Assembly: GCF_036971445.1 (NCBI RefSeq)
Contig: NC_091472.1
Location: 121,892,001 to 121,956,000, forward strand
Source of the DNA: Narcine bancroftii
Taxonomy: Eukaryota
Reading direction: 5' to 3'
Length of the DNA stretch: 64,000 bases
Of the stretch, positions 671-16,674 are shown piece by piece; position 1 is the stretch's first letter; each line of letters starts with the position of its first letter. Both the position numbers and the translations under genes were made by a program. The notes below the pieces were generated by a model. It was not told where the DNA came from. It saw only the letters and a list, made by a program, of their open reading frames with translations, and did no database searches.

Positions 671-848
671 TGCAATGAACGTGGATTCACTAGCAGCTGG
701 CTCCGCCCTCATCTGTTCACATATAACCCTGGTTTCCCACCCAAACCCAGAACCCTTCCAAAGACTACTATGAAACCCTACCTATAGTTATAAGCTAATA
801 AAAGCATTGGTTCTCCCTCCAGTCGTGAAAGCTTTTATTCATGCAACA
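671..848 (+). repeat. 5' LTR of provirus 1 (178 bp)
   Basis: tgcaatgaac...catgcaaca. TATA-like atataa at 721 and AATAAA at 797. Aligns to 3197-3390. Confidence 0.95.
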
Positions 849-869
849 ATTTTATTAGCTTATTCCCTA

Positions 870-1290
870 ATGATGGAAGTTCTACTCAAGCCAGATATGC
901 TGCTGATAGACCCTCTCTCCCCCAACGTGGCTAAGGAGTTCACATACTGACTGGACTGCTTCCAGGTCTACATGAACGCGACCAGAGATGTCTTCTACAC
1001 CGATGAATGCAGTCATCAGGCACTGCTCTACGTATGACGTTGCTATTGAGGCAGTGTAGGCTCAGTACCTGAAGTCACATAACAAAGGACCAACTCGCTC
1101 TATGTTGCCAGTGGCCAGGAGAGACCCTCGATGACTACCTGCTGGATCTGTGGATGTTTGACAAGGAGTGCAGGTACAAAGTGGCTACGGGCCTTACTCG
1201 TGAGGAAAAACAGATCCAGGACACTCTAGTCGCAGGGGACAACTCAAGGTACATGAGGCAGTACCATGACGCCAACCTTCAGAGTTTTCT
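870..1290 (+). pseudogene. gag remnant of provirus 1
   Basis: ATG at 870 reads MMEVLLKPDMLLIDPLSPNVAKEFTY*LDCFQVY, resembling Mag-type gag N-termini. Has stops and frameshifts, then jumps directly into late RT. Confidence 0.7.
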
Positions 1291-3020
1291 CCACAGCGGC
1301 AAAAGCCCTGAACCTCACTTATAACTGACAAGTGCATCTTAAAGACTATCTTAAGGCTGACTATCCTTGGCTTTGTGTTGTTAAATGGCATCATTGTCCC
1401 TGATCCCGATAGGATGCACCCCATGTTAGAGCTCCCCATCTGCAGGACCACAAAGGCTTTGAGCAGATACCTGGAGTTTTTCTCATATTACACCCAGTGG
1501 ATCCTTCAATATACTGATAAAGTTCACCCTCTCTTAACAGCCACTAATATCCCCCTCTCGGCTGAAGCCCAAACAGCTCTTAACTACCTCCGGAACCATA
1601 TTGCAAAAGCCGCCAAGCACACAGTGGACGAGAATGTACCTTTCCAAGTGGAAAGCGATGCTTCAGACGTAGCCCTGGCTGCTACCCTCAACCAGTTTTT
1701 TTATTGCGGATAAAACAAGGCCACGAATTCCAGAACCCTCTGTGGAAAATGAGGATCAAGCCATTATAGAAGCCATGAGGCACTGGAGACACTACCTGGC
1801 TGGTAGAAAATTTACACTCCTCACTGACCAGCACTCAGTCACCTTCATGTTTAATAATGTCAAGAGGGGAAAAATCAAAAGTGACAAGATTGCTAAGTGG
1901 GTGATCGAGCTCTCCACCTACAATTATGACATTGCTTATTGTCCAAGAGCCCTTAATGACCCTCCAGATGCCTTATCCAGAGGAAGCTGTGCCTCTGCAC
2001 ATACTTGACAACTGTGGTCTGTACATAATGAGTCCTGCCATCCAGGGGTCACCTGCATGGCTCATTTTGTCAAGGCATGCAATCTGCCTGACTCTATGGA
2101 GGATATCAGGGAAATGACCAGGTTTTGCCAGGTCCGTGCAGAGTGCAAGCTGCACTTCTACTGCCCTGCCAAGGCCCACCTGATCAAGTTATCCAGGCCC
2201 TTCAAATGGCTCAGTGTTGTTTTAAGGGGCCTTTCCCCTCCATGAACAGAAACACTTTCTTCCTCTCTATCCGTGATGAGTACACCCACTTCCCGTTCAC
2301 CATTCCATGTCCAGACACGTCCACTTTGTCAGTCATAAATGCCCTAGACTCTAATTTTGCCCTGTTCGGGTATCCCATCTATATTCATAGCGACCGGGCC
2401 TCAGCCTTTATGAGTGACGAGCTACGTCAATACCTGTTGGTGAGGGGGATTGTGCACAGCAAGAGTACTAGCTACAACCCCCTGGGAGAATGGGCAGGTT
2501 GAAAAAAATGCCACAAATCTGGAAGGCTGTCAAACTAGCCCTGAAGTCAAAAGGCCTTCCAGACTCACACTGGCAGGAAGTCCTCCCAATGGTGCTCCAT
2601 TCCATCCAATCGCTGCTATGTACTACAACCAACACTACCCCTCACGAGCTCCTATTCACTTTCGAGGAAAGGTCAGCATCGGGAACTACACTCCCAATCT
2701 GGCTCACCACTCCTGGTCCTGTCCTTATCAGGAAGCACATAAGGAGAAGCAAGACCGACCCTCTGGTGGAAAGGGTGAAACTGCTCCACGCCAATCCCGC
2801 GTATGCCTATGAGGAGTACCCTGATGGCAGAGAGGACACCATCTCCATCAGGGACCTGGCACCCACCAGAACAGAGGGTCCATTGCCTCAGGTGCCCTGT
2901 GAGCCACACAGCTCAATCTTGCCACACCCAGTCAGGGCCTCAGGGAATCCGGTTCAGGAAGAAAGTGCATCCCCTCTATCTTTGAGCCAGAAATCCAGCC
3001 CACCTCTCCTCCCTCACTAG
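1290..3020 (+). pseudogene. pol remnant (RT C-terminus, RNase H, integrase)
   Basis: ORF pieces FQVESDASDVALAATL and AIIEAMRHWRHYLAGRKFTLLTDQ (RNase H); IHSDRASAFMS and STSYNP/NGQVEK (integrase core). Frameshifted; protease and most of RT are deleted. Confidence 0.92.
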
Positions 3021-3196
3021 GGGACCAGGAGACCCAAGGAGTCCAAGGCCCCCTGGTGCTAAGGCACTCCACCAGGATCTCCAGACCCCCAGACCAATGA
3101 AATCTGTAAATAACTGTATATTTTTCAACCATTTTTTTCTGAACCCATTTTCTCTGTCTTCATTCACAGACCCTAAATTTTTCAGGGAGGGTTGAA

Positions 3197-3390
3197 TGCA
3201 GTGAACTGGGATTCACTGGTAGTGTGTGGTGCTGATGGCTGGCCCCACCCCCATCTGCTCACATATAACCCTGGTTTCCAGTCTAAACCCAGAACCCTTC
3301 CAAAGACTACTGTGAAACCCTACCTGTAATTTTAAGCTAATAAAAGCTCTTGTTCTCCCTCCAGTCATAAGAGCTCTTATTCACATTACA
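3197..3390 (+). repeat. 3' LTR of provirus 1 (194 bp)
   Basis: tgcagtgaac...cacattaca, preceded by the PPT and followed by TSD ccctc. Confidence 0.95.
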
Positions 3391-4289
3391 CCCTCCATCT
3401 CACCTCTCAGTAGACATAGATTCAACCCCTCCTGAAAGCATCAACTGACTTCTTTGTCATGGAGGGGATGGTCAATTATCTGAGTGTAGAGGATGACATC
3501 ACCAATGGGAATTATTCTGCCCATCAAGTCTGTGCTGGCTGATGGCTGTTACTGTCAGTGATTACTACCTATGCAAATGCTCTGAAGTGCCACCAATTTG
3601 CAGTCCAAATGTACTCCCAGATTACTTTCATACATTCAATAACTGCAGCAGTTCCTGCAATCAAACACTCAACAATCCAAGAGAAACACAAAGACTGCAG
3701 ATGCTATAAACTTGAGCAAACAACTGAGCAGGTCAGAGGCAAGCTTGGGGAAAAGAGTCAGTCCACATTTCATGTTGGGACTCTTTACTGATAATGTCCA
3801 ATGCTGGAATAAGCCTGGTTCTCCACTTCCTATTCTAAGATATTTCCATACACCATAGAACAATATTCAATCTATCAAGTCTTTGCTTGCAGTCATCAAT
3901 CCCTTCCACACTTATTCCTCTGCAAATAACTCTCCCATGAACCCATCGGCTCCTCTCTGATTCTCCTCCCATTCACTTAAGCTAAAGGTGACTTACAGTA
4001 AGGAAGTGTAGAAAAAAAAATTAGTTAATTGTAAATTTCCTACTCACTGCTGCAGGTATTGTGTAAAATTCCCATCTGCCTAAACTGCTGAGTTGAAGTG
4101 AATTAATACCACCCTGCGACACAAGTTCCCAGGATCACATGATCTCTATTGCCCAATCAACTTCCTGCTGATTGAAGCTGTTCCGATCCAACTGCCTGTG
4201 TCACCTGACTCCAATTGCCAGGTGCAGCCTTCAGATCAAATCACTGCTGAAGGCTACTACAATATCTACCTCCAAGATCACTAAGTCTG

Positions 4290-4960
4290 CTACAGAAGTA
4301 AAACACGAAAATCTGTAGACACTGTGGTTGAAGTAAAAACACAAAGCTGGAGGAAACTCAACAGATCAAATAGCGTCCTTTATATAGCAGAGGTAAAAGT
4401 ACAGATCCAATGTTTCAGGCTTGAGCCCTTCTTCAAGGTATGGGAAAATGTCAGTGGTCGCCCGAACAAAAGAGTAGGGGGAGAAGTGGCTGCAAAGGCA
4501 GGAGGTGATAGGTGGAGAAGGGAGGGAGAGGACAGAAGTGAATAAGGGGAGGAGGGATAGCTAGGTGAATAGAGAGGAGGGGGAGGAGAACTGGAAAGGG
4601 GAAGAGGAGAGCAGGTTAGCAGAAACCAGAAAAGTTGATGTGAATTCCATCTGGCTGGACGGGGCCCAGAGAGAAAATCCAGGGTTGTTCCTTCAATTTG
4701 TGGGTGGTCTTGGTGGGATAGTAGTCAAGGCAATGGACAGACATGGGTGTATGGGAGTGTGACACAGAACTGAAATGGTTGGCTATTTGGAGATCTCTGA
4801 CACTGGTGCGGATGGAGCAAAGGTGCTCAGCGAAGTGATCTCCCAGTCTGTGCCCTGTCTCTCTGAATTAGAGAAGGCCACAAAGAGAGCACCAGATGCA
4901 GTAAAATCAATCAATCAAGTGTTGCTTCACTTGAAAGGCCTGTTTGCGACCCCCCCCCCC
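4290..4960 (-). mobile_element. Penelope-like element 3' end (GIY-YIG remnant and pLTR), inverted relative to the adjacent copy
   Basis: Minus strand gives KQAFQVKQH and a hammerhead-like motif at 4409-4438. Homologous to 6120-6346 and 29760-30360. Confidence 0.8.
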
Positions 4961-5039
4961 TGACTGTGATGAGGTAGTTGTGAAAGTTTGTATGTTTCTA
5001 ATATTATCTCAGTGTTAAAACACTTCACTTTAAGAAACC

Positions 5040-6346
5040 TGACTAGTCACCCTCCACCACCACCCTCCTCCACCTGGCAGAACTTGTACTCACTTTAAAC
5101 AACCTCTCCCTTTAACTCATCTCATTCTTCCAAATCAAAGGAGTAGCCATGGGTACCCACGTGGATCCCAGCTACACCTGCCTGCTTGTGGGCTTTGTGG
5201 AGCAATCCATGTTGCAAGTCTACACAGGCAAGGCTCCTCAACTCTTACTCCAGTACATTGATGACTACGTTGGGGCTGCCTCATGCACCTGTGATGAGCT
5301 TGTCAACTTCATCCACTTTGAGGCCATTTCCACTCCAGAGTCGGCGTCAGATGAGATCTAACTGGGGGGCAGTAGGGTATCCGCAGGAGGGCACAAACTG
5401 CCATTCGAGAATTCTCTCAGCGGGGTGGCTTACCTCCATGGACTTCCTCTGTCTGTCGTGCCATCACACTTCCCCCTCCCTCGAGCATTTCAGACAAACG
5501 TGCATACTTATAGCATATGGAGATGAAACCACTTGATTCATTTTGGTGACACCCCCTCTGATGGCATCACCCAGTGTGGTCCACAATCCCCTAGTGATGC
5601 TAGTGCTGTGGGTGGGTTGGGGCACAATAATTCATTAGGGGGGCAAGGCCTGCGAATGCCCCCAATGACACAGAGCCTGTTCTACCCCGATCTCAAACTC
5701 GCCTGGTCCATCTCTGACAACACTGTCCCCTTGCTGGATCTCCACTGCATCTGCTCGCAAGATGAGGTCTTCAGATCTGCCAAAATGTTTGCCTTCTTAT
5801 ACAACCGTGCCTTCCCCTCCACCACCTCAACAACATCTCTGTCATTTCCTGTTTATCTGCCCTGACTCCCTCTGCCCCAGATGCAACAAACACAGAATCC
5901 CCCTCATCTTCACCTACCACCCCACCAGCCTTCACATCCAACATATCATCCACCCGAACTTCCAGCACTTACAACAGGATCCCACTACCAGACACATTTT
6001 CCCCTTCTGTAGGGACTGCTCCCTCAGTGACTCCCTCGTGCACTCATCCCCCCACCTTGGCACCTTCTCCTGTGGCTGCAGGAGGTGCCACACGTGCCCA
6101 CACCTCCTCCGTCACCACAGTCCAGGACCCCAAACAGGCCTTTCAAGTGAAACAACACTTCACTGTGTATCCACAGGATGGCTTTACTGCATCTGGTGCT
6201 CCCTTTGTGGCCATCTCTACGTCAGAGAGATTGAGTGCAGGCTGGGAGATCGCTTCACTGAGCACCTTTACTCCATCTGCATCAGTGACTCTTTTGTTCG
6301 GTCACCTGCCGACATTTTTACATACCTTGATGAAGGGCTCAAGCCC
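5040..6346 (+). mobile_element. Penelope-like element, decayed RT and GIY-YIG
   Basis: FQIKGVAMGTHVDPSYTCLLVGFVEQ..YIDD (PLE RT), LKLAWSISDNTVPLLDL, YCIWCSLCGHLYVREIECRLGDRFTEHL (GIY-YIG). Confidence 0.88.
5336..5679. mobile_element. hAT-like MITE inserted in the Penelope RT
   Basis: Imperfect TIRs cagagtcggcgtca / tgacacagagcctg. Degenerate 8-bp TSD ttccactc / ttctaccc. The RT frame (..HF..FHP|DLKLAWS) resumes across it. Confidence 0.65.
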
Positions 6347-10790: not shown

Positions 10791-11014
10791 TGTTTCATCT
10801 TGTATTCGTATGTGTGAGTTCTTGGACAACACATGGATGAAGGAAAAGGTTATTTATTTAAAAGTTGTTGTAAACAGCACCATGAGGCTGTAAGTCTCCA
10901 TTACAGATCTCACATACTGTGTGTCAGCCCCCTGCTGGCAGCCAAGTCTAATCAAACAGGAACTATAATCAAGGCCTTGCTAGTGGCCATGCAAACATGA
11001 TTACTATCATTACA
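10791..11014 (-). repeat. 3' LTR of provirus 2 (224 bp)
   Basis: tgtttcatc...cattaca, adjacent to the PPT (tctccctttctt on +). Confidence 0.93.
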
Positions 11015-11338
11015 TCTCCCTTTCTTAAAACAAAGGTAGCTTAGTTTTAACTACATGTTTTCCTTGTATAACTCGACAATTTTAACTTTAACATCAAGAA
11101 CTTACATTTTTATTGTTATCAACATTGATAACATGTTTTAAACATGTTTTGTGGGTTCACATTTACATACACTAAAACTTGAAGAGTGAATAAGATAGCA
11201 CTACTTCATTCTATAACAGGAGTCTTTAAATTTGCTCAATGAGTCTCTTAGGAAGATTCATATGTCCTGATGATCTCCTGATTGATTGTCCTTGAATCTG
11301 AGTTGTTGCCTGAGATGATGTCTTCTCAGATGTGTATT

Positions 11339-14110
11339 CTACTGTGGCTGGTCACATTTGAAAGTCTCGACGATTTCTTGGCAGAACAATACCTTCATCT
11401 GTCTGAATGGTGTATGATCTTGGTTGGACTTCACCAAGGACAGTTCCCTTCTGAATCCATAAGTTTGTTTGTCTTTTAGCTTAACTTGGTCACCAGTGTA
11501 GAGTTCCGGTAGGTTTATTGTTCCTCTGTCAAAGTAATACTTATGCTTTTCTTTCTGTTGTTTTTTTAATTTCTTCCCTTTATTCCCGTTTTTGATTTTA
11601 GGAGGTTCTCCTGAATGGGTAGGTTTGATCATAGCCTACGTCCTATACGGAGTTGTGCTGGTGACATACACACTCGAGCAGTGTTGTGCGGTATACTAGA
11701 ATACTCTGGTAGAAGTCTGTTCCACTGTCTTTTGCCTTGTTCATCAGTCTTTTCACTGTCTGTTCTGATTTTTCCACTAGACCATTGGACTGTGGAAAAT
11801 TAGGACTTGACGTGGTGTGTACAAAGTCCCACTCTTCAGCAAACTGTCGGAACATTAAATTGCAAAACTGGGGTCCATTGTCTGTGAAGACCTCGCTTGT
11901 CACGCCATGTCTAGAGAACATGACTTTCATACCTGTTATTACAGTATCTGCTGTGGTGGTGTCAGTCTACACACCTCTGGATACAGGGAGTAATAATAGT
12001 CTGTGACTACAAAATAGTCCTTTCCTTGACATTTGAATAGGTAAGCGCCTACCTTCTGGTCAGGTCTGTATGGTGTTGGGTGTGGCTTTCGTGATTGCTT
12101 GCTTGATATTTCTAGCATATTGTACAGTTTGACACTTCATTTGCTATGTTATTGTTGATTCTTGGCCAGTACATCACCTCTTGTGCTCTTTTCTTAAACT
12201 TTTCAATTCCGAGATGTCCTCCATGGATCCTTTTTAGCATCTCCTTTCTCAGACTCTTTGGGTTAAGGATTTTGCTTCCTTTGCAGATAATGTCTTCAAT
12301 CACTGATAGTTCCGCCCTGCAGTTCCAGTACTCTGAAACGTCAGGTGAGCAGTCCTGCTTCATGTTGGTCCATCCATCCAAGATGTTTTTTCTCAGTTGT
12401 CTCAGTGTTTCATCTTTGTTTGTCTCTGACTTTATGAGCTCCATTTTTGCATCTGATATAGGCAGTGCACTTCTGATCATGTTCATGAAGGCATTCATGT
12501 CTTCATCCATTTTGGTGTTTGCGGGCTCTCTCGTGTCAACAGCTCTAGACAACGTGTCTGCTTGTATACATTAGCTTACCCAGTGTATAGCATTGTAGCA
12601 TAATCATCATTCTTTGTATTCTCAGTGGACATTCATTTAATGGCTTTTGGAACAATGCAATCAAAGGCTTAAGGTCAGTCTCTACACTGATTGCCTGTCC
12701 TGACACAAACTGATGAAATCTTTCACAGGCGTATGTGATGCTGAGCAGCTCCTTTTCAATTTGAGCCTATCATGTCTCCACGTCTGTCAATGAGCGTGAT
12801 GCATACGCAATGGGCTGCCAGTCATTATATTTTTGCAGAAGAACTGCACCGAGCCCACTATGTAATCCGTCTAATGATATCTTGATGGGTCTCGCTGGGT
12901 CGTAAAACCTCAGAACTGGTTCCTCTGTGAGCAGTTTCTTTAGTTCACTCCATGACTTTTCATGGTCATGATTCCACTCCCATTCAATGTTCTTTTCTGT
13001 TATTCTTCTCAATGGAGCCATCTTTTCTGAGAGGTTGTATATGATTTTACCCATCTAGTTGACCATTCCATTAAACCTCTGTACGTCCTTTTTGCATTGT
13101 AGCCTTGGCATGTTCCCAATGGCAGACACCTTTCTTGGATCTGGTCTGATGCCATCACTGCCAATAATATCTCCTACAAATGTTAGTTCAGTCACCCCGA
13201 GCCGGGATTTCTCTCTATTCAGCTTCAAGTTTGCTTTCCTTATTGCTTCCATCACTTTCCTTAGTCTCTCATCATGCTCCATTCTCGTGGTTCCCCAGAG
13301 GTGGTCATCCATTGAGGTGTCAACTCTGTCCAGGGGCTCATATGGATAGTTTTGTGATACATTTCAGCAACTGAGGCAATTCCGAATGGTCACCTTAGGA
13401 ATCTGTATCTGCCAAATGGACTATTGAATGTGCACAGTCTTGAACTTGCTTCATCCAATTTTAACTGCCAAAATCCTGATGATGCATCTAACTTGCTGAA
13501 AAACTTTGCATTTGTAAACTGTGAAATGATTTCTTCACATGTTGGAAGGTTAAAGTGTTCTCTCTTTACTGCTCTGTTTAGATCTCTTGGATCCAAGCGA
13601 ATTCTAAGCTTTCCATTCTTTTTGTCCACAACAATGAGTGAACTCACCCACTCTATTAGCTCATCTATCTTCTGAATCACGTTCAGGCTTTCCATCCTGT
13701 CCAACTCTGCCTTTAGTTGCTTTTGGAGTGCAAATGGAACTTTTCTACATAGATATATTATCAGTGGCACACATTTATCACTCTGATCGTGTGTTCTCCT
13801 GGAAGGCAGTCTGGACCCTGATATAGGACATTGTACTCTTTCATGAGTTCATCATGACTGTCTCTCCTTTGCTTTCCATAATGAGGTCTCTTTTTACTAG
13901 GTTCAATTTCTCACAGGCTGTTAAACCTAGTATGGCCTGTACATCCTTTGATATCACGATGAATGGTAGCATATGCTCTCTGTCCTTGTGTTTCACTTTG
14001 ACCATGATTCTCCTTGCACTGGTATATCAGTACCTGAATATCCTGTCATCTTCATTTTTGTTCCATACATCTTTGGTCTGGGTCTAATCAGTCTCTGATA
14101 GTACATTAAT
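11339..14110 (-). pseudogene. pol remnant (protease region, RT, RNase H, integrase)
   Basis: RKVPFALQKQLKAELDRME, LDPRDLNRAVKREH, FSKLDASSGFWQ, MDD, GLGAVLLQ..PIAYASRSL, HGGHLG..C..C, TDNGPQF, SSPNFPQSNGLVEK. Broken into several frames. Confidence 0.95.
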
Positions 14111-14221
14111 TTGTCACAACATCTACATAGAATTCCTCCATCTCCCTTTCATATACTGCATGAACCATGCTTTGTTGCACTTGGTTCCTACAGCAACAGG
14201 CATAATGGTTGCTTTTGTTGC

Positions 14222-14917
14222 TCATATTGCTGGACACTTTTTTTGGTAGGTGTTGTGTACCGCATCAATGACATGGCTTTCAATTGCCCCTTTCATTTTG
14301 TTCACTGGCCACGCCTCTCTTTCCACTTTGGCGTGCTTTTTGTTCTTGCTCACTGCATCCACGTTGAAGCTAGTTTCACTGAACAGCTCTTTTGCCTGCA
14401 GATTTACAGTTTCTGTAGACCTACAGAGTGCTATGGCTTTTTCCAGGTCTAGATTTTGCTCTCTTAGCAGTTTTTTCCTTATACTACTATCTGGAATACC
14501 ACACAAAAGTCTGTCTTTTATCAACGTGTCAGTCAGTCCATCAAATTCACATGTTTTGCTTCTGTTTCTCAATTAAGTCACATATTCATCAATACATTCT
14601 TCCATTTTCTGTACATGTTTGAAAAATCTGTGCCTCTCAAATGTAACATTACATTTAGGAATGCAGTATGCCTCAAACTGTTCCATTATTTTTTCCAGTT
14701 TCATTTTGTCTCCTTCAGTAGCAAATGTGAAGTTATTATATACCCCCAGGGTTTCATCACCCACAACATGTAAGAAAACTGACGCTTTCACTTTATCACT
14801 TTTCTTGTCAGCTCTGACTGCCACTAAATACAATCCAAAATGCTGTTTAAATCTGTTCCAATTTTCAGTCACATTATCTGTCAGCTGAAGTTTGGCTGGT
14901 GAATGTAATCCTTCCAT
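14222..14917 (-). pseudogene. gag remnant of provirus 2
   Basis: MEGLHSPAKL..NWNRFKQHFGLYL..FEAYCIPKCNVTFERHRFF, LIKDRLLCGI..KLLREQNLDLEKAI. In-frame stop at about 14573 and a decayed zinc knuckle (..KKCPA). Confidence 0.9.
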
Positions 14918-14999
14918 TATTCACTGTTTTATCTTCTCTTCACTAATCAGTTGCTGACTTTAGAGTTTCCTTTTAAATTATTTCCTTTTAATTTCCTTC

Positions 15000-15017
15000 A
15001 TCCCACTTCTGACACCA
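15000..15017 (-). other. Primer-binding site complementary to the tRNA-Leu 3' end
   Basis: TGGTGTCAGAAGTGGGAT immediately inside the 5' LTR, matching the ..ATCCCACTTCTGACACCA end of vertebrate tRNA-Leu(CAA). Confidence 0.88.
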
Positions 15018-15155
15018 TGTTTCATCGTGTATTCATATGTGTGAGTTCTTGGACAACACATGGATGAAGTAAAAGATTATTTACTTATCTAATCAAACAG
15101 GAAATATAACCAAGGCCTTGCTAGTGGCCATAAAAACATGATCACTAACATTATA
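15018..15155 (-). repeat. 5' LTR of provirus 2 (138 bp, about 86 bp deleted)
   Basis: Matches both ends of 10791-11014 but lacks about 10861-10946. Confidence 0.92.
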
Positions 15156-16674
15156 GTGCATACAGCAGGGGAGGGGAAAGCGCAGTCTTTCACATGAGGA
15201 TCTTCAGTTTATTCTGGTCCTGCCCTCGCTGATTAGCATTTACCTCTCTGTTAAACCAAATGTCACAACATGGCCTAAAGCATGGAAACTATTACTTGAT
15301 GGCACCATTCTAGAAGAAACGCCTGCATCAGGAAGCTGCTGGATATAAGGACGCTAAACAAGAAAGTCTGTGGATGATGAGGTTGATTCCAATGCAGAAG
15401 CGTGCAGGAGAACTTCAGTAAGGGTAACCAACATTTGGGGCCTGGCCTGGGCTATTGGTCAGGATAAAAGAGTAACTACTATGATGTGCACTGTAAATAA
15501 ATATTTGGTTCAGATGTATTCAACTTCACAAAGCATGGAAGCTAGTACTCTTCAGCTATTTACATTTTCCAATTTGAACTAGATTGTATTCGATGAGCTA
15601 CCTTTAATCAGCTGGTTTCTAATGCCTCTGTATTCCAACAGAGCTCTTCAATTGAAAGAGTGTTTAAATATGTTTGACTTCAACCAGCCATAAGTAGGAT
15701 ATCTGTGCTTTCAAAGACCTCACACTGGTTTTCAATGAACTAGGGTACTGAAGAAATGAAGGTTAATGCTTGGCTTCTTCTGCCCTGTACCTCTGATGGG
15801 AAATTGGCAGTGCAATTTATTTCACAATTCATGCACATCCATATTTCATGCAAGGCTTCTGAAAACTTTGCAGCATCTCCATTGCACCAAAACAGTTAAT
15901 ACCGAGCACGAGAAAAGCACACCTCAACCTTCCATTCAATCACTTTAAATAAACATGTTAACACCAGAGTTTTGAACATGATTAACCAGTTGTAAATGGG
16001 GTGGTCAGTGAAGAGGAAAAAATACCTAACTTTGATGCAGTGTCAAAGCCCTTAGGAGTTCCCATTGTGTTTCATGACCAACAAATTACTTTTGAAATTG
16101 TCTGTTATGTGAGGGAATTCTGCAGACAGTAAGCTCCCACAAACACTAAAAGCTAACCCTCATCTCTGATTCGATTTCTACAATGCAGACCAATCCGTTC
16201 TCTGAAACCTCAAGACCATCGTAAATTTCTGCCAGGCATACAGTTCAGACAAGTCCATTTCTCTCATCAGTCCTGTGCTCAGCTTGACCTGTGCTGGATC
16301 AGTGTTAAACAATGACAGGTTCGAGAGGCCAAACGTCCTGTTCCTTTTCCTATTTTGTATGTTCTGAGGAGCGGAAAACTTTTTAAATGACCTCACATTC
16401 AATCTTCAACTCACACCCTCCCATTATCCCCGGGCCTGGTTAATGAAGCCTCTAAGATTGTGAGACTTTACTTCCACCACCCTTTGAGGAGGAGACTTCC
16501 AAAGGCACAGAAGGACATAGTCCTAATGTGGCAAATGGAATTAGGTGTAAAAGGCCAGAATGGACACAATGGGCTAAAGGACAGCTTTCTGTGCTGCGCA
16601 GCTCCTTGAATGACTCTTCAATCCCTTATTTTTTTAAAGGAATCTTCCTAGTTTGAGACTCAAGAACCATATGC

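Follow-up and report, generated by a model that had tools for sequence, protein, structure and literature searches.

A compact animal Gypsy clade with primer sites complementary to its own LTRs: evidence for likely self-priming from an internally deleted copy in Narcine bancroftii

Introduction

The locus analyzed here raises the question of what primes the reverse transcription of a Gypsy element in which the segment following the 5′ LTR complements the element's own LTR. It lies in a 64,000-nt stretch of the Narcine bancroftii genome (NC_091472.1, positions 121,892,001 to 121,956,000 of the forward strand), hereafter the window, and an original prediction from the sequence had named it a candidate for tRNA-independent self-priming. 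Self-priming has been described as a feature of the Tf1/sushi chromoviruses (PMC10085805, PMC4600332). According to the consulted sections of the literature, the Tf1 primer is made up of the transcript's first 11 bases, freed by RNase H (PMC7175516), its use needs a three-duplex "pretzel" structure (PMC10085805), and about half of the Tf1 cDNA retains the copied primer site (PMC11042837). Self-priming has also been predicted from the complementarity between LTR and primer-binding site in the plant element Tcn1 and in the TAR lineage of Ty1/copia (Houba, Osr-1) (PMC6317226), and Skipper is described as having neither a TGG site nor an LTR complement (PMC5006619). The mollusc Gypsy clades Cigr-1 and MolGy are listed, with no priming data in the section concerned, in PMC6238403; background on LTR and gag features is found in the corresponding sections of PMC3601003 and PMC2577118.

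Results

The element occupies positions 671 to 3390 on the plus strand, as do all of its features given below, and is flanked by a direct 5-bp target site duplication (TSD) with identical bases at 666-670 and 3391-3395. A comparison of its LTRs, which have TG...CA ends, placed the 5′ LTR at 671-848 and the 3′ LTR at 3197-3390, with 151 of 175 aligned bases identical. A degenerate polypurine tract (PPT) is found at 3184-3196, as judged from the sequence and the equivalent position in family copies. When the protein P0029 was compared with the element by tblastn, its residues 1-34 and 93-148 matched a broken gag remnant (873-1261) and the next match began at residue 606; downstream of this remnant, the remainder of gag is absent, as are the protease and the greater part of the reverse transcriptase (RT). 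A broken pol remnant, with the end of RT, RNase H (RH), and integrase, is found at 1327-2912. The copy thus measures 2.7 kb, versus mostly 4.1-4.6 kb in family members with both LTRs. Its LTR ends, TSD, and PPT, together with the Pfam order PR-RT-RH-IN in all eight relatives examined, assign it to Ty3/Gypsy, and the nearest named proteins among the matches listed were from Scyliorhinus, Hypanus, and Mobula, as fits a host among the cartilaginous fish. We found no match in an Rfam search of four loci, no tRNA gene in the 64-kb window, no relative in a viral sequence collection, and nothing in locus scans with a single protein as the query.

The putative primer-binding site starts 1 nt past the 5′ LTR, at 850-863, where no TGG is present. 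An inverted-repeat search confirmed that it is complementary at 14 of 14 bases to an arm within the LTR (790-803, with AATAAA at 797-802), from which it is separated by 46 nt, and that 850-862 also pairs 13/13 with the arm core in the 3′ LTR (3333-3345), exactly as originally described. A lone 14-bp inverted repeat is weak evidence, and other inverted pairs of 14-18 nt occur in the same 8 kb of the window; this complement goes beyond chance because its position is fixed and because it covaries across families, as shown below. The leader of the window copy folded with a z score of only -2.07, the helix being predicted to close U5 into two hairpins. Compared with 30 host tRNA genes (11 anticodons, none of them Leu), the site had a longest match of 6 nt, located away from the tRNA 3′ end. 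The second LTR element of the window (10791-15250, minus strand), which is broken by stops and frameshifts, serves as the contrast that had been drawn, its primer site (15017-15000, minus strand) being of the TGG type. We take this site to be of the tRNA-Leu type, for which no gene was among the 30 compared, and the RT motifs of this element to be of the Mag/Steamer type.

The non-tRNA site was found throughout the window family. The LTR search gave 3969 and the RNase H search 30,236 candidates, which are not copy numbers. All of the 30 copies picked by their junctions shared the site, in a sample biased by the query, and an independent sample of 40 loci was picked by RNase H alone, 25 with and 15 without a 5′ junction. 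A TGG primer site was present in none of these 25 junctions, and 23 of them differed from the window site by two mismatches or fewer, indicating that the window copy did not simply lose a tRNA site.

To follow the complement across families, we used a profile built from 65 relatives, which yielded the best 80 of 574 metagenome loci, 6 loci from prokaryote assemblies, and a younger sister family of this genome. The loci with a gag start provided 82 upstream regions (one region was too short) in 36 clusters including the window, and every CA within 100 nt of gag was scanned for a post-LTR complement to the element's own LTR. At least 11 perfectly paired bases were found in 29 of the 36 clusters, a level reached by 8 of 1260 pairs formed across families and by none of 900 dinucleotide shuffles; since the 29 clusters were chosen by pairing, 29/36 is the informative figure. 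The paired clusters carried 26 distinct primer-site 11-mers. Their complements were 11-19 nt long, with arm lengths concentrated at 13-16 nt, and 28 of the 29 began 1 nt past the CA; the loop spanned 21-70 nt, and RCC followed the arm in 22/29. When the arms were dealt to other families, positions 4-11 paired at 55%, with a maximum of 67% in 2000 deals. A single-site compensatory change distinguishes L109 from L112, and, where both LTRs were present, the LTR ends set independently by the LTR pairs agreed with the scan. The arm helix was predicted at a mean P of at least 0.83 in 26 of the 29 leaders, the other three folding otherwise.

The seven clusters without such pairing comprised a spurious gag match (L126), a contig without a 5′ LTR (L151), a contig cut before the arm whose 3′ LTR holds a 12-nt complement (L118), and shorter or mismatched arms in L140, L152, L165, and a third family of this genome found beside L188. 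The clade ranges from corals to cartilaginous fish, its elements being about 4 kb in size, with Acropora, Montipora, Porites, Pocillopora, and Actinostola among the named members of the clusters. The complement of the primer site to the element's own LTR is therefore real and clade-wide. As the site acts as a primer site and tracks the element's own sequence, the primer is very likely derived from the element.

A few individual loci were also of note. The third family has an arm and primer site of 14 nt with one mismatch, seen at about 960-976 of L188 (element orientation) and in L192, beside the younger family. In L139, an 18-nt direct repeat is common to U3 and a sequence overlapping the end of the primer site, and could compete for the arm. 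L127 has a 14-nt primer-site-like sequence past its 3′ LTR, and no TSD was found there, as expected for a retained copied primer. Six contigs filed in bacterial MAGs (L181-L186) carry elements of the clade, probably as host (eukaryotic) contamination.

The overlap of the arm with the poly(A) signal suggests an alternative function, in which the helix only hides the signal of the 5′ LTR or regulates translation and the primer is another RNA or a protein. A canonical hexamer (AATAAA or ATTAAA) was found in 20 of 30 arms, including that of L117, formation of the helix is confined to the 5′ LTR, and the tRNA comparison covered 30 genes with 11 anticodons. However, the hexamer was absent from the other 10 arms, so that occlusion cannot be the only role, and in L101, L103, and L115 it is located in the loop, outside the helix. 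In addition, the 1-nt offset from the LTR end is needed by a primer site but not by occlusion, a cellular primer cannot follow 26 different sequences, and the tRNA match noted above was short and away from the 3′ end. We thus consider this explanation improbable; silencing of the 5′ poly(A) site, as first proposed for the window copy, is a plausible second role of a helix that serves priming.

A phylogenetic analysis placed the clade outside both of the lineages with which it might be grouped, as far as the RT-RH sequences indicate. The polyproteins of the clade are single open reading frames (ORFs) of about 1200 aa; none of eight full polyproteins scanned contained a chromodomain or a Tf2-type SH3 domain, and neither was among the precomputed domains of the 120 matches listed. 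An RT-RH tree was built with 33 of 52 rows after thinning, a quick tree of all 52 giving equal groups, and its chromovirus references were fish chromodomain-bearing proteins only. The clade formed one branch with a support of 100/100, separate from the fish chromodomain elements (100/100), the Mag-type rows (99/97), and the Gmr1-type rows (100/99), while its joining with the Mag-type rows had a support of only 72/24. The labels Mag, Gmr1, and CsRn1 are our assumption from motifs and domain order. A Mag-like nature of the window element had been proposed, and it holds only for a weak similarity of the gag N-terminus to that of the second window element (24%, E 1e-8); the RTs of the clade and of Mag-type elements are 23-27% identical. 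The suggestion that self-priming arose separately was not supported: a grouping of the clade with the chromoviruses was not rejected by the AU test (p 0.46) and the tree gave no settled deep branching order, leaving room for a shared origin with Tf1/sushi. Chromovirus copies in this genome were few and decayed. Most of the Pfam SH3_Tf2-1 matches read from it (L207-L232) have the integrase before RT and are presumably Gmr1-type elements, so that this domain is not a chromovirus marker in this genome.

We then considered where the transcript might begin. The window LTR has a GC box (703-708) and a TATA-like motif (722-726) that likely form its core promoter (703-726), and the LTR of the younger sister family has a CCAAT motif, a TATA at base 109, an Inr A at base 141, and the arm at 179-192. 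In both families, the TATA-like motif precedes the arm by 68 nt and the arm end by 82-84 nt, and no promoter motifs are present at -30 from the arm. From the TATA/Inr arrangement of the sister family, a 5′ fragment serving as the primer would measure 52 nt, a value set before the footprints described below were seen. In the window family, the start is probably near 751, as TATA plus 29 nt, and about 38-40 nt upstream of the arm, rather than near 790 as originally expected. The putative self-primer, from this predicted start to the arm end, would then cover 749-803, in agreement with the footprint stops, and the 46-nt loop (804-849), comprising the end of R, U5, and a 1-nt spacer, would be the template for the predicted strong-stop DNA. 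The TATA spacing is not common to the invertebrate families, and no common TATA was found 25-35 nt upstream of the arm across families (6 of 30 only). The arms of L138 and L149 begin about 40-44 nt from the start of the LTR, suggesting that the primers there may be short and 5′-terminal. Contigs of four runs, presumed to be RNA, cover the younger sister family, and no poly(A) loose end was seen in them among the matches listed.

Both ends of the primer may be read from failed reverse transcription products integrated in the genome. If a retained primer is read through during plus-strand synthesis, the product should have the LTR end and the primer site joined to the reverse complement of the R sequence upstream of the arm. 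The younger sister family had 115 such footprint junctions versus 919 normal junctions, and reversed-pattern controls gave none. Ninety of the 115 were read in detail. Palindromes consisting of the whole LTR, the primer site, and an inverted U3-R back to the LTR start made up 25 of them, 20 with a direct TSD. Another 45 were of an inverted-U5 type, in which U3-R-arm is followed by an inverted U5 and a jump; 31 of their 40 distinct breakpoints were within 10 nt of base 193, the arm end, and one was near the start site. The remaining 20 were truncated read-throughs with 19 distinct lengths, i.e., 26, 29, 30, 35, 38, 42, 44, 47, 50, 51, 52, 53, 55, 55, 56, 75, 90, 113, and 179 nt. Fifteen of the 19 were 56 nt or shorter (p 4e-7 versus uniform) and seven fell at 50-56 nt, a group shifted by 1-7 nt by microhomology, while four extended beyond the predicted start.

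The same junctions occurred in the window family, where the 21 probe matches comprised 10 ordinary LTRs on the other strand, which were dropped, 2 inverted-U5 footprints, and 9 read-throughs. The latter stopped at 27, 27, 29, 36, 53, 54, 89, 96, and 109 nt, six of the nine at 54 nt or less, with two at 53-54 nt (p 0.011) and three beyond the predicted start. The stops at 53 and 54 nt belong to L321 and L396, the footprint insertion of L396 having a TSD, and 53 nt corresponds to window base 751.

These junctions reflect integrated cDNAs and not later genomic inversions, as all 14 non-palindromic footprints of the sister family with both ends in view had TSDs; altogether, 34 footprint insertions had direct TSDs. 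Chance, the loss of a tRNA site in the window copy, or a genomic inversion artifact would have agreed with the AT-rich arm, the age of the window copy, and one palindrome (L309) that extends into the flanking DNA without a TSD and looks postinsertional or like an assembly artifact. This explanation is refuted by the family-wide and clade-wide complement, including the covariation in 29/36 clusters and the absence of TGG from all 25 junctions, and by the TSD-flanked footprints.

A number of footprint loci had further peculiarities. Palindromic insertions of LTR sequence alone, about 430 bp in length, ending in U3 on both sides and flanked by a direct 5-bp TSD, were seen at L285, L286, L288, L295, L298, L299, L311, and others, and an annotator would take them for small inverted-repeat DNA elements. 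L304, L364, L376, and L378 have a common inverted-U5 breakpoint at LTR base 190, joined to the LTR end; L364 and L378 are both 266 bp long with TSDs. The four may represent a recurrent accident or a small nonautonomous derivative. At C16:12196634-12196838 of this genome, three junction-probe matches of alternating orientation within 200 bp suggest a repeated fold-back array.

The footprints also bear on the length of the primer. The arm of 11-16 nt may prime alone, as a Tf1-like 5′-terminal piece or trimmed on both sides, in which case all the footprints would come from plus-strand DNA that folded back onto its arm. This would suit the concentration of arm lengths at 13-16 nt and the short-LTR families L138 and L149, whose arm is about where the start site would be. 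Moreover, the palindrome of L375 continues without a break for 15 nt into the complement of the PPT, so that full palindromes are best accounted for by a plus-strand DNA template and a long RNA primer is not required for each footprint. In the sister family, a DNA hairpin (-7.5 kcal/mol) is centered on the predicted start/Inr and could likewise bias breakpoints there and produce the group at 50-56 nt. However, no such hairpin is present at the corresponding place in the window family, which nevertheless has stops at 53-54 nt; in the sister family, 7 of the 15 truncations of up to 56 nt fell in the last 7 of the 39 positions before the predicted start (p 0.01). The promoter motifs, 68 nt upstream of the arm with none at -30 in both families of this genome, also disagree with a start at the arm. 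A short primer is thus unlikely, albeit the least unlikely of the alternatives considered. The wall of truncations at the predicted start suggests instead a capped fragment, and the cluster of breakpoints at the arm end suggests a cut there, although the breakpoints near base 193 also fit a stem-loop boundary. An upstream start had been expected to leave only poly(A) occlusion as a role for the helix, whereas the footprints point to a longer primer.

Alternatively, the primer could be the 3′ end of the genomic RNA, with the arm of the 3′ LTR trimmed back to the hexamer and paired with the primer site. In the window copy, 13 of 14 pairs are kept in the 3′ LTR, and the whole inverted U3-R was found in 70 of the 90 footprints. 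Such a primer would lead to read-through past U3 into the PPT and the 3′ untranslated region, but this was seen in only 2 of the 70. It also predicts no wall at the start and a strong-stop DNA ending at the cap, whereas the truncations stop at 50-56 nt and the inverted-U5 ends concentrate at the arm end, with only 1 of 40 near the start. We consider this origin slightly less probable still than poly(A) occlusion alone.

Discussion

Our results suggest, with a probability of roughly 70%, that the window element, an aged copy with an internal deletion, belongs to a compact Gypsy clade that likely primes with a capped fragment from the 5′ end of its own RNA, predicted to measure about 52 nt and to stop at the poly(A) signal. 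The candidacy for self-priming put forward at the outset is supported by both the clade-wide covariation and the reverse-transcription footprints; the start and cleavage sites are our inference from sequence, footprints, and promoter motifs.

In the proposed mechanism, transcription would start about 29 nt past the TATA box (at about 751 in the window copy), and the arm at 790-803 would fold onto 850-863. Immediately past the 3′ side of the arm (in most cases ...AAA|RCC), the RNA would be cut or trimmed; the enzyme would probably be the RNase H of the element, as has been reported in Tf1. The primer may be freed by RNase H in cis, or a trimmed abortive transcript may act in trans. RT would then copy U5 into a short strong-stop DNA, which could transfer to the 3′ end through the stretch of R that separates the hexamer from the poly(A) site. 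The primer would stay attached, and plus-strand synthesis would sometimes read through it to the cap and then jump or fold back, generating the footprints. In the families whose arm contains the hexamer, this helix could also conceal the poly(A) signal of the 5′ LTR.

A broader proposal, that an animal-wide Gypsy clade independently evolved self-priming with a primer made of the capped R region cut right after the poly(A) signal, is a tentative one to which we give slightly less than an even chance. If true, one helix would prevent premature polyadenylation at the 5′ LTR and at the same time define where the priming cut is made, and more than 100 integrated reverse-transcription accidents, including LTR-only palindromes with TSDs, would map both primer ends without an experiment.

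The clade shares with Tf1/Tf2/Tj1 and sushi elements the lack of a tRNA site and a primer site complementary to its own 5′ LTR RNA, and, as described in the consulted reports on Tf1, the primer there is likewise retained and copied into plus-strand DNA. However, Tf1 primes with its first 11 bases, relies on a three-duplex pretzel, and has a chromodomain, whereas the clade has an arm of 11-19 nt, no chromodomain, and a separate RT branch. Unlike that of Tf1, the arm of the clade has the poly(A) hexamer at its end and, in both families of this genome, lies about 38 nt within R as counted from the predicted start; it is usually followed by RCC and often by a small hairpin. In the predicted folds, hairpins within the loop are closed by the arm helix. 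Self-priming outside the chromoviruses has already been proposed for the TAR lineage, as here for the clade. TAR and Tcn1 are plant elements, TAR belonging to a different superfamily, and the consulted sections of PMC6317226 do not mention an overlap with the poly(A) signal.

The window element also resembles the Mag lineage (the SURL/Steamer-type C clade) in its short LTRs and 5-bp TSD as well as in the weak gag similarity. Mag-type elements differ in having a TGG tRNA site, as opposed to 0/25 in the window family, and in the RT divergence and branch described above. Base pairing also hides the AAUAAA of the 5′ LTR in HIV-1, but there it is a local hairpin in a tRNA-primed virus, whereas in the clade the partner of the hexamer is the primer site itself. 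Ciona Cigr-1 is reportedly about 4.2 kb long, with LTRs of about 245 bp, one ORF of about 1200 aa, and a SURL-like gag on a non-Mag RT; this anatomy matches the clade, a likeness of description and not of sequence. In the open-access literature, we found no description of how Cigr-1 is primed, and none of the priming of the clade; Repbase reportedly labels some invertebrate Gypsy families as self-primed.

Besides its demonstration in Tf1, priming without a tRNA has been predicted in related elements and in a single copia lineage of plants. To these the present analysis adds an animal clade that is widespread, present in high copy number, and outside the chromoviruses, and that differs in geometry, namely, in a likely long capped primer ending at the poly(A) signal. 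The mechanism is thus a variant of known self-priming, and the footprint junctions are what is new. From them, the positions of start and cut as well as a capped RNA of about 52 nt can be predicted within a few bases, which makes the mechanism directly testable. Probing for junctions of LTR end, primer site, and reverse LTR offers a general route to primer length from DNA alone, and this approach would also suit sushi, TAR, and further elements that lack a tRNA site. The clade is liable to be overlooked by annotation tools in which such a site is required.

Elsewhere in the window, two non-LTR retrotransposon-like fragments at 4385-6345 have opposite orientations and thereby form long inverted repeats.
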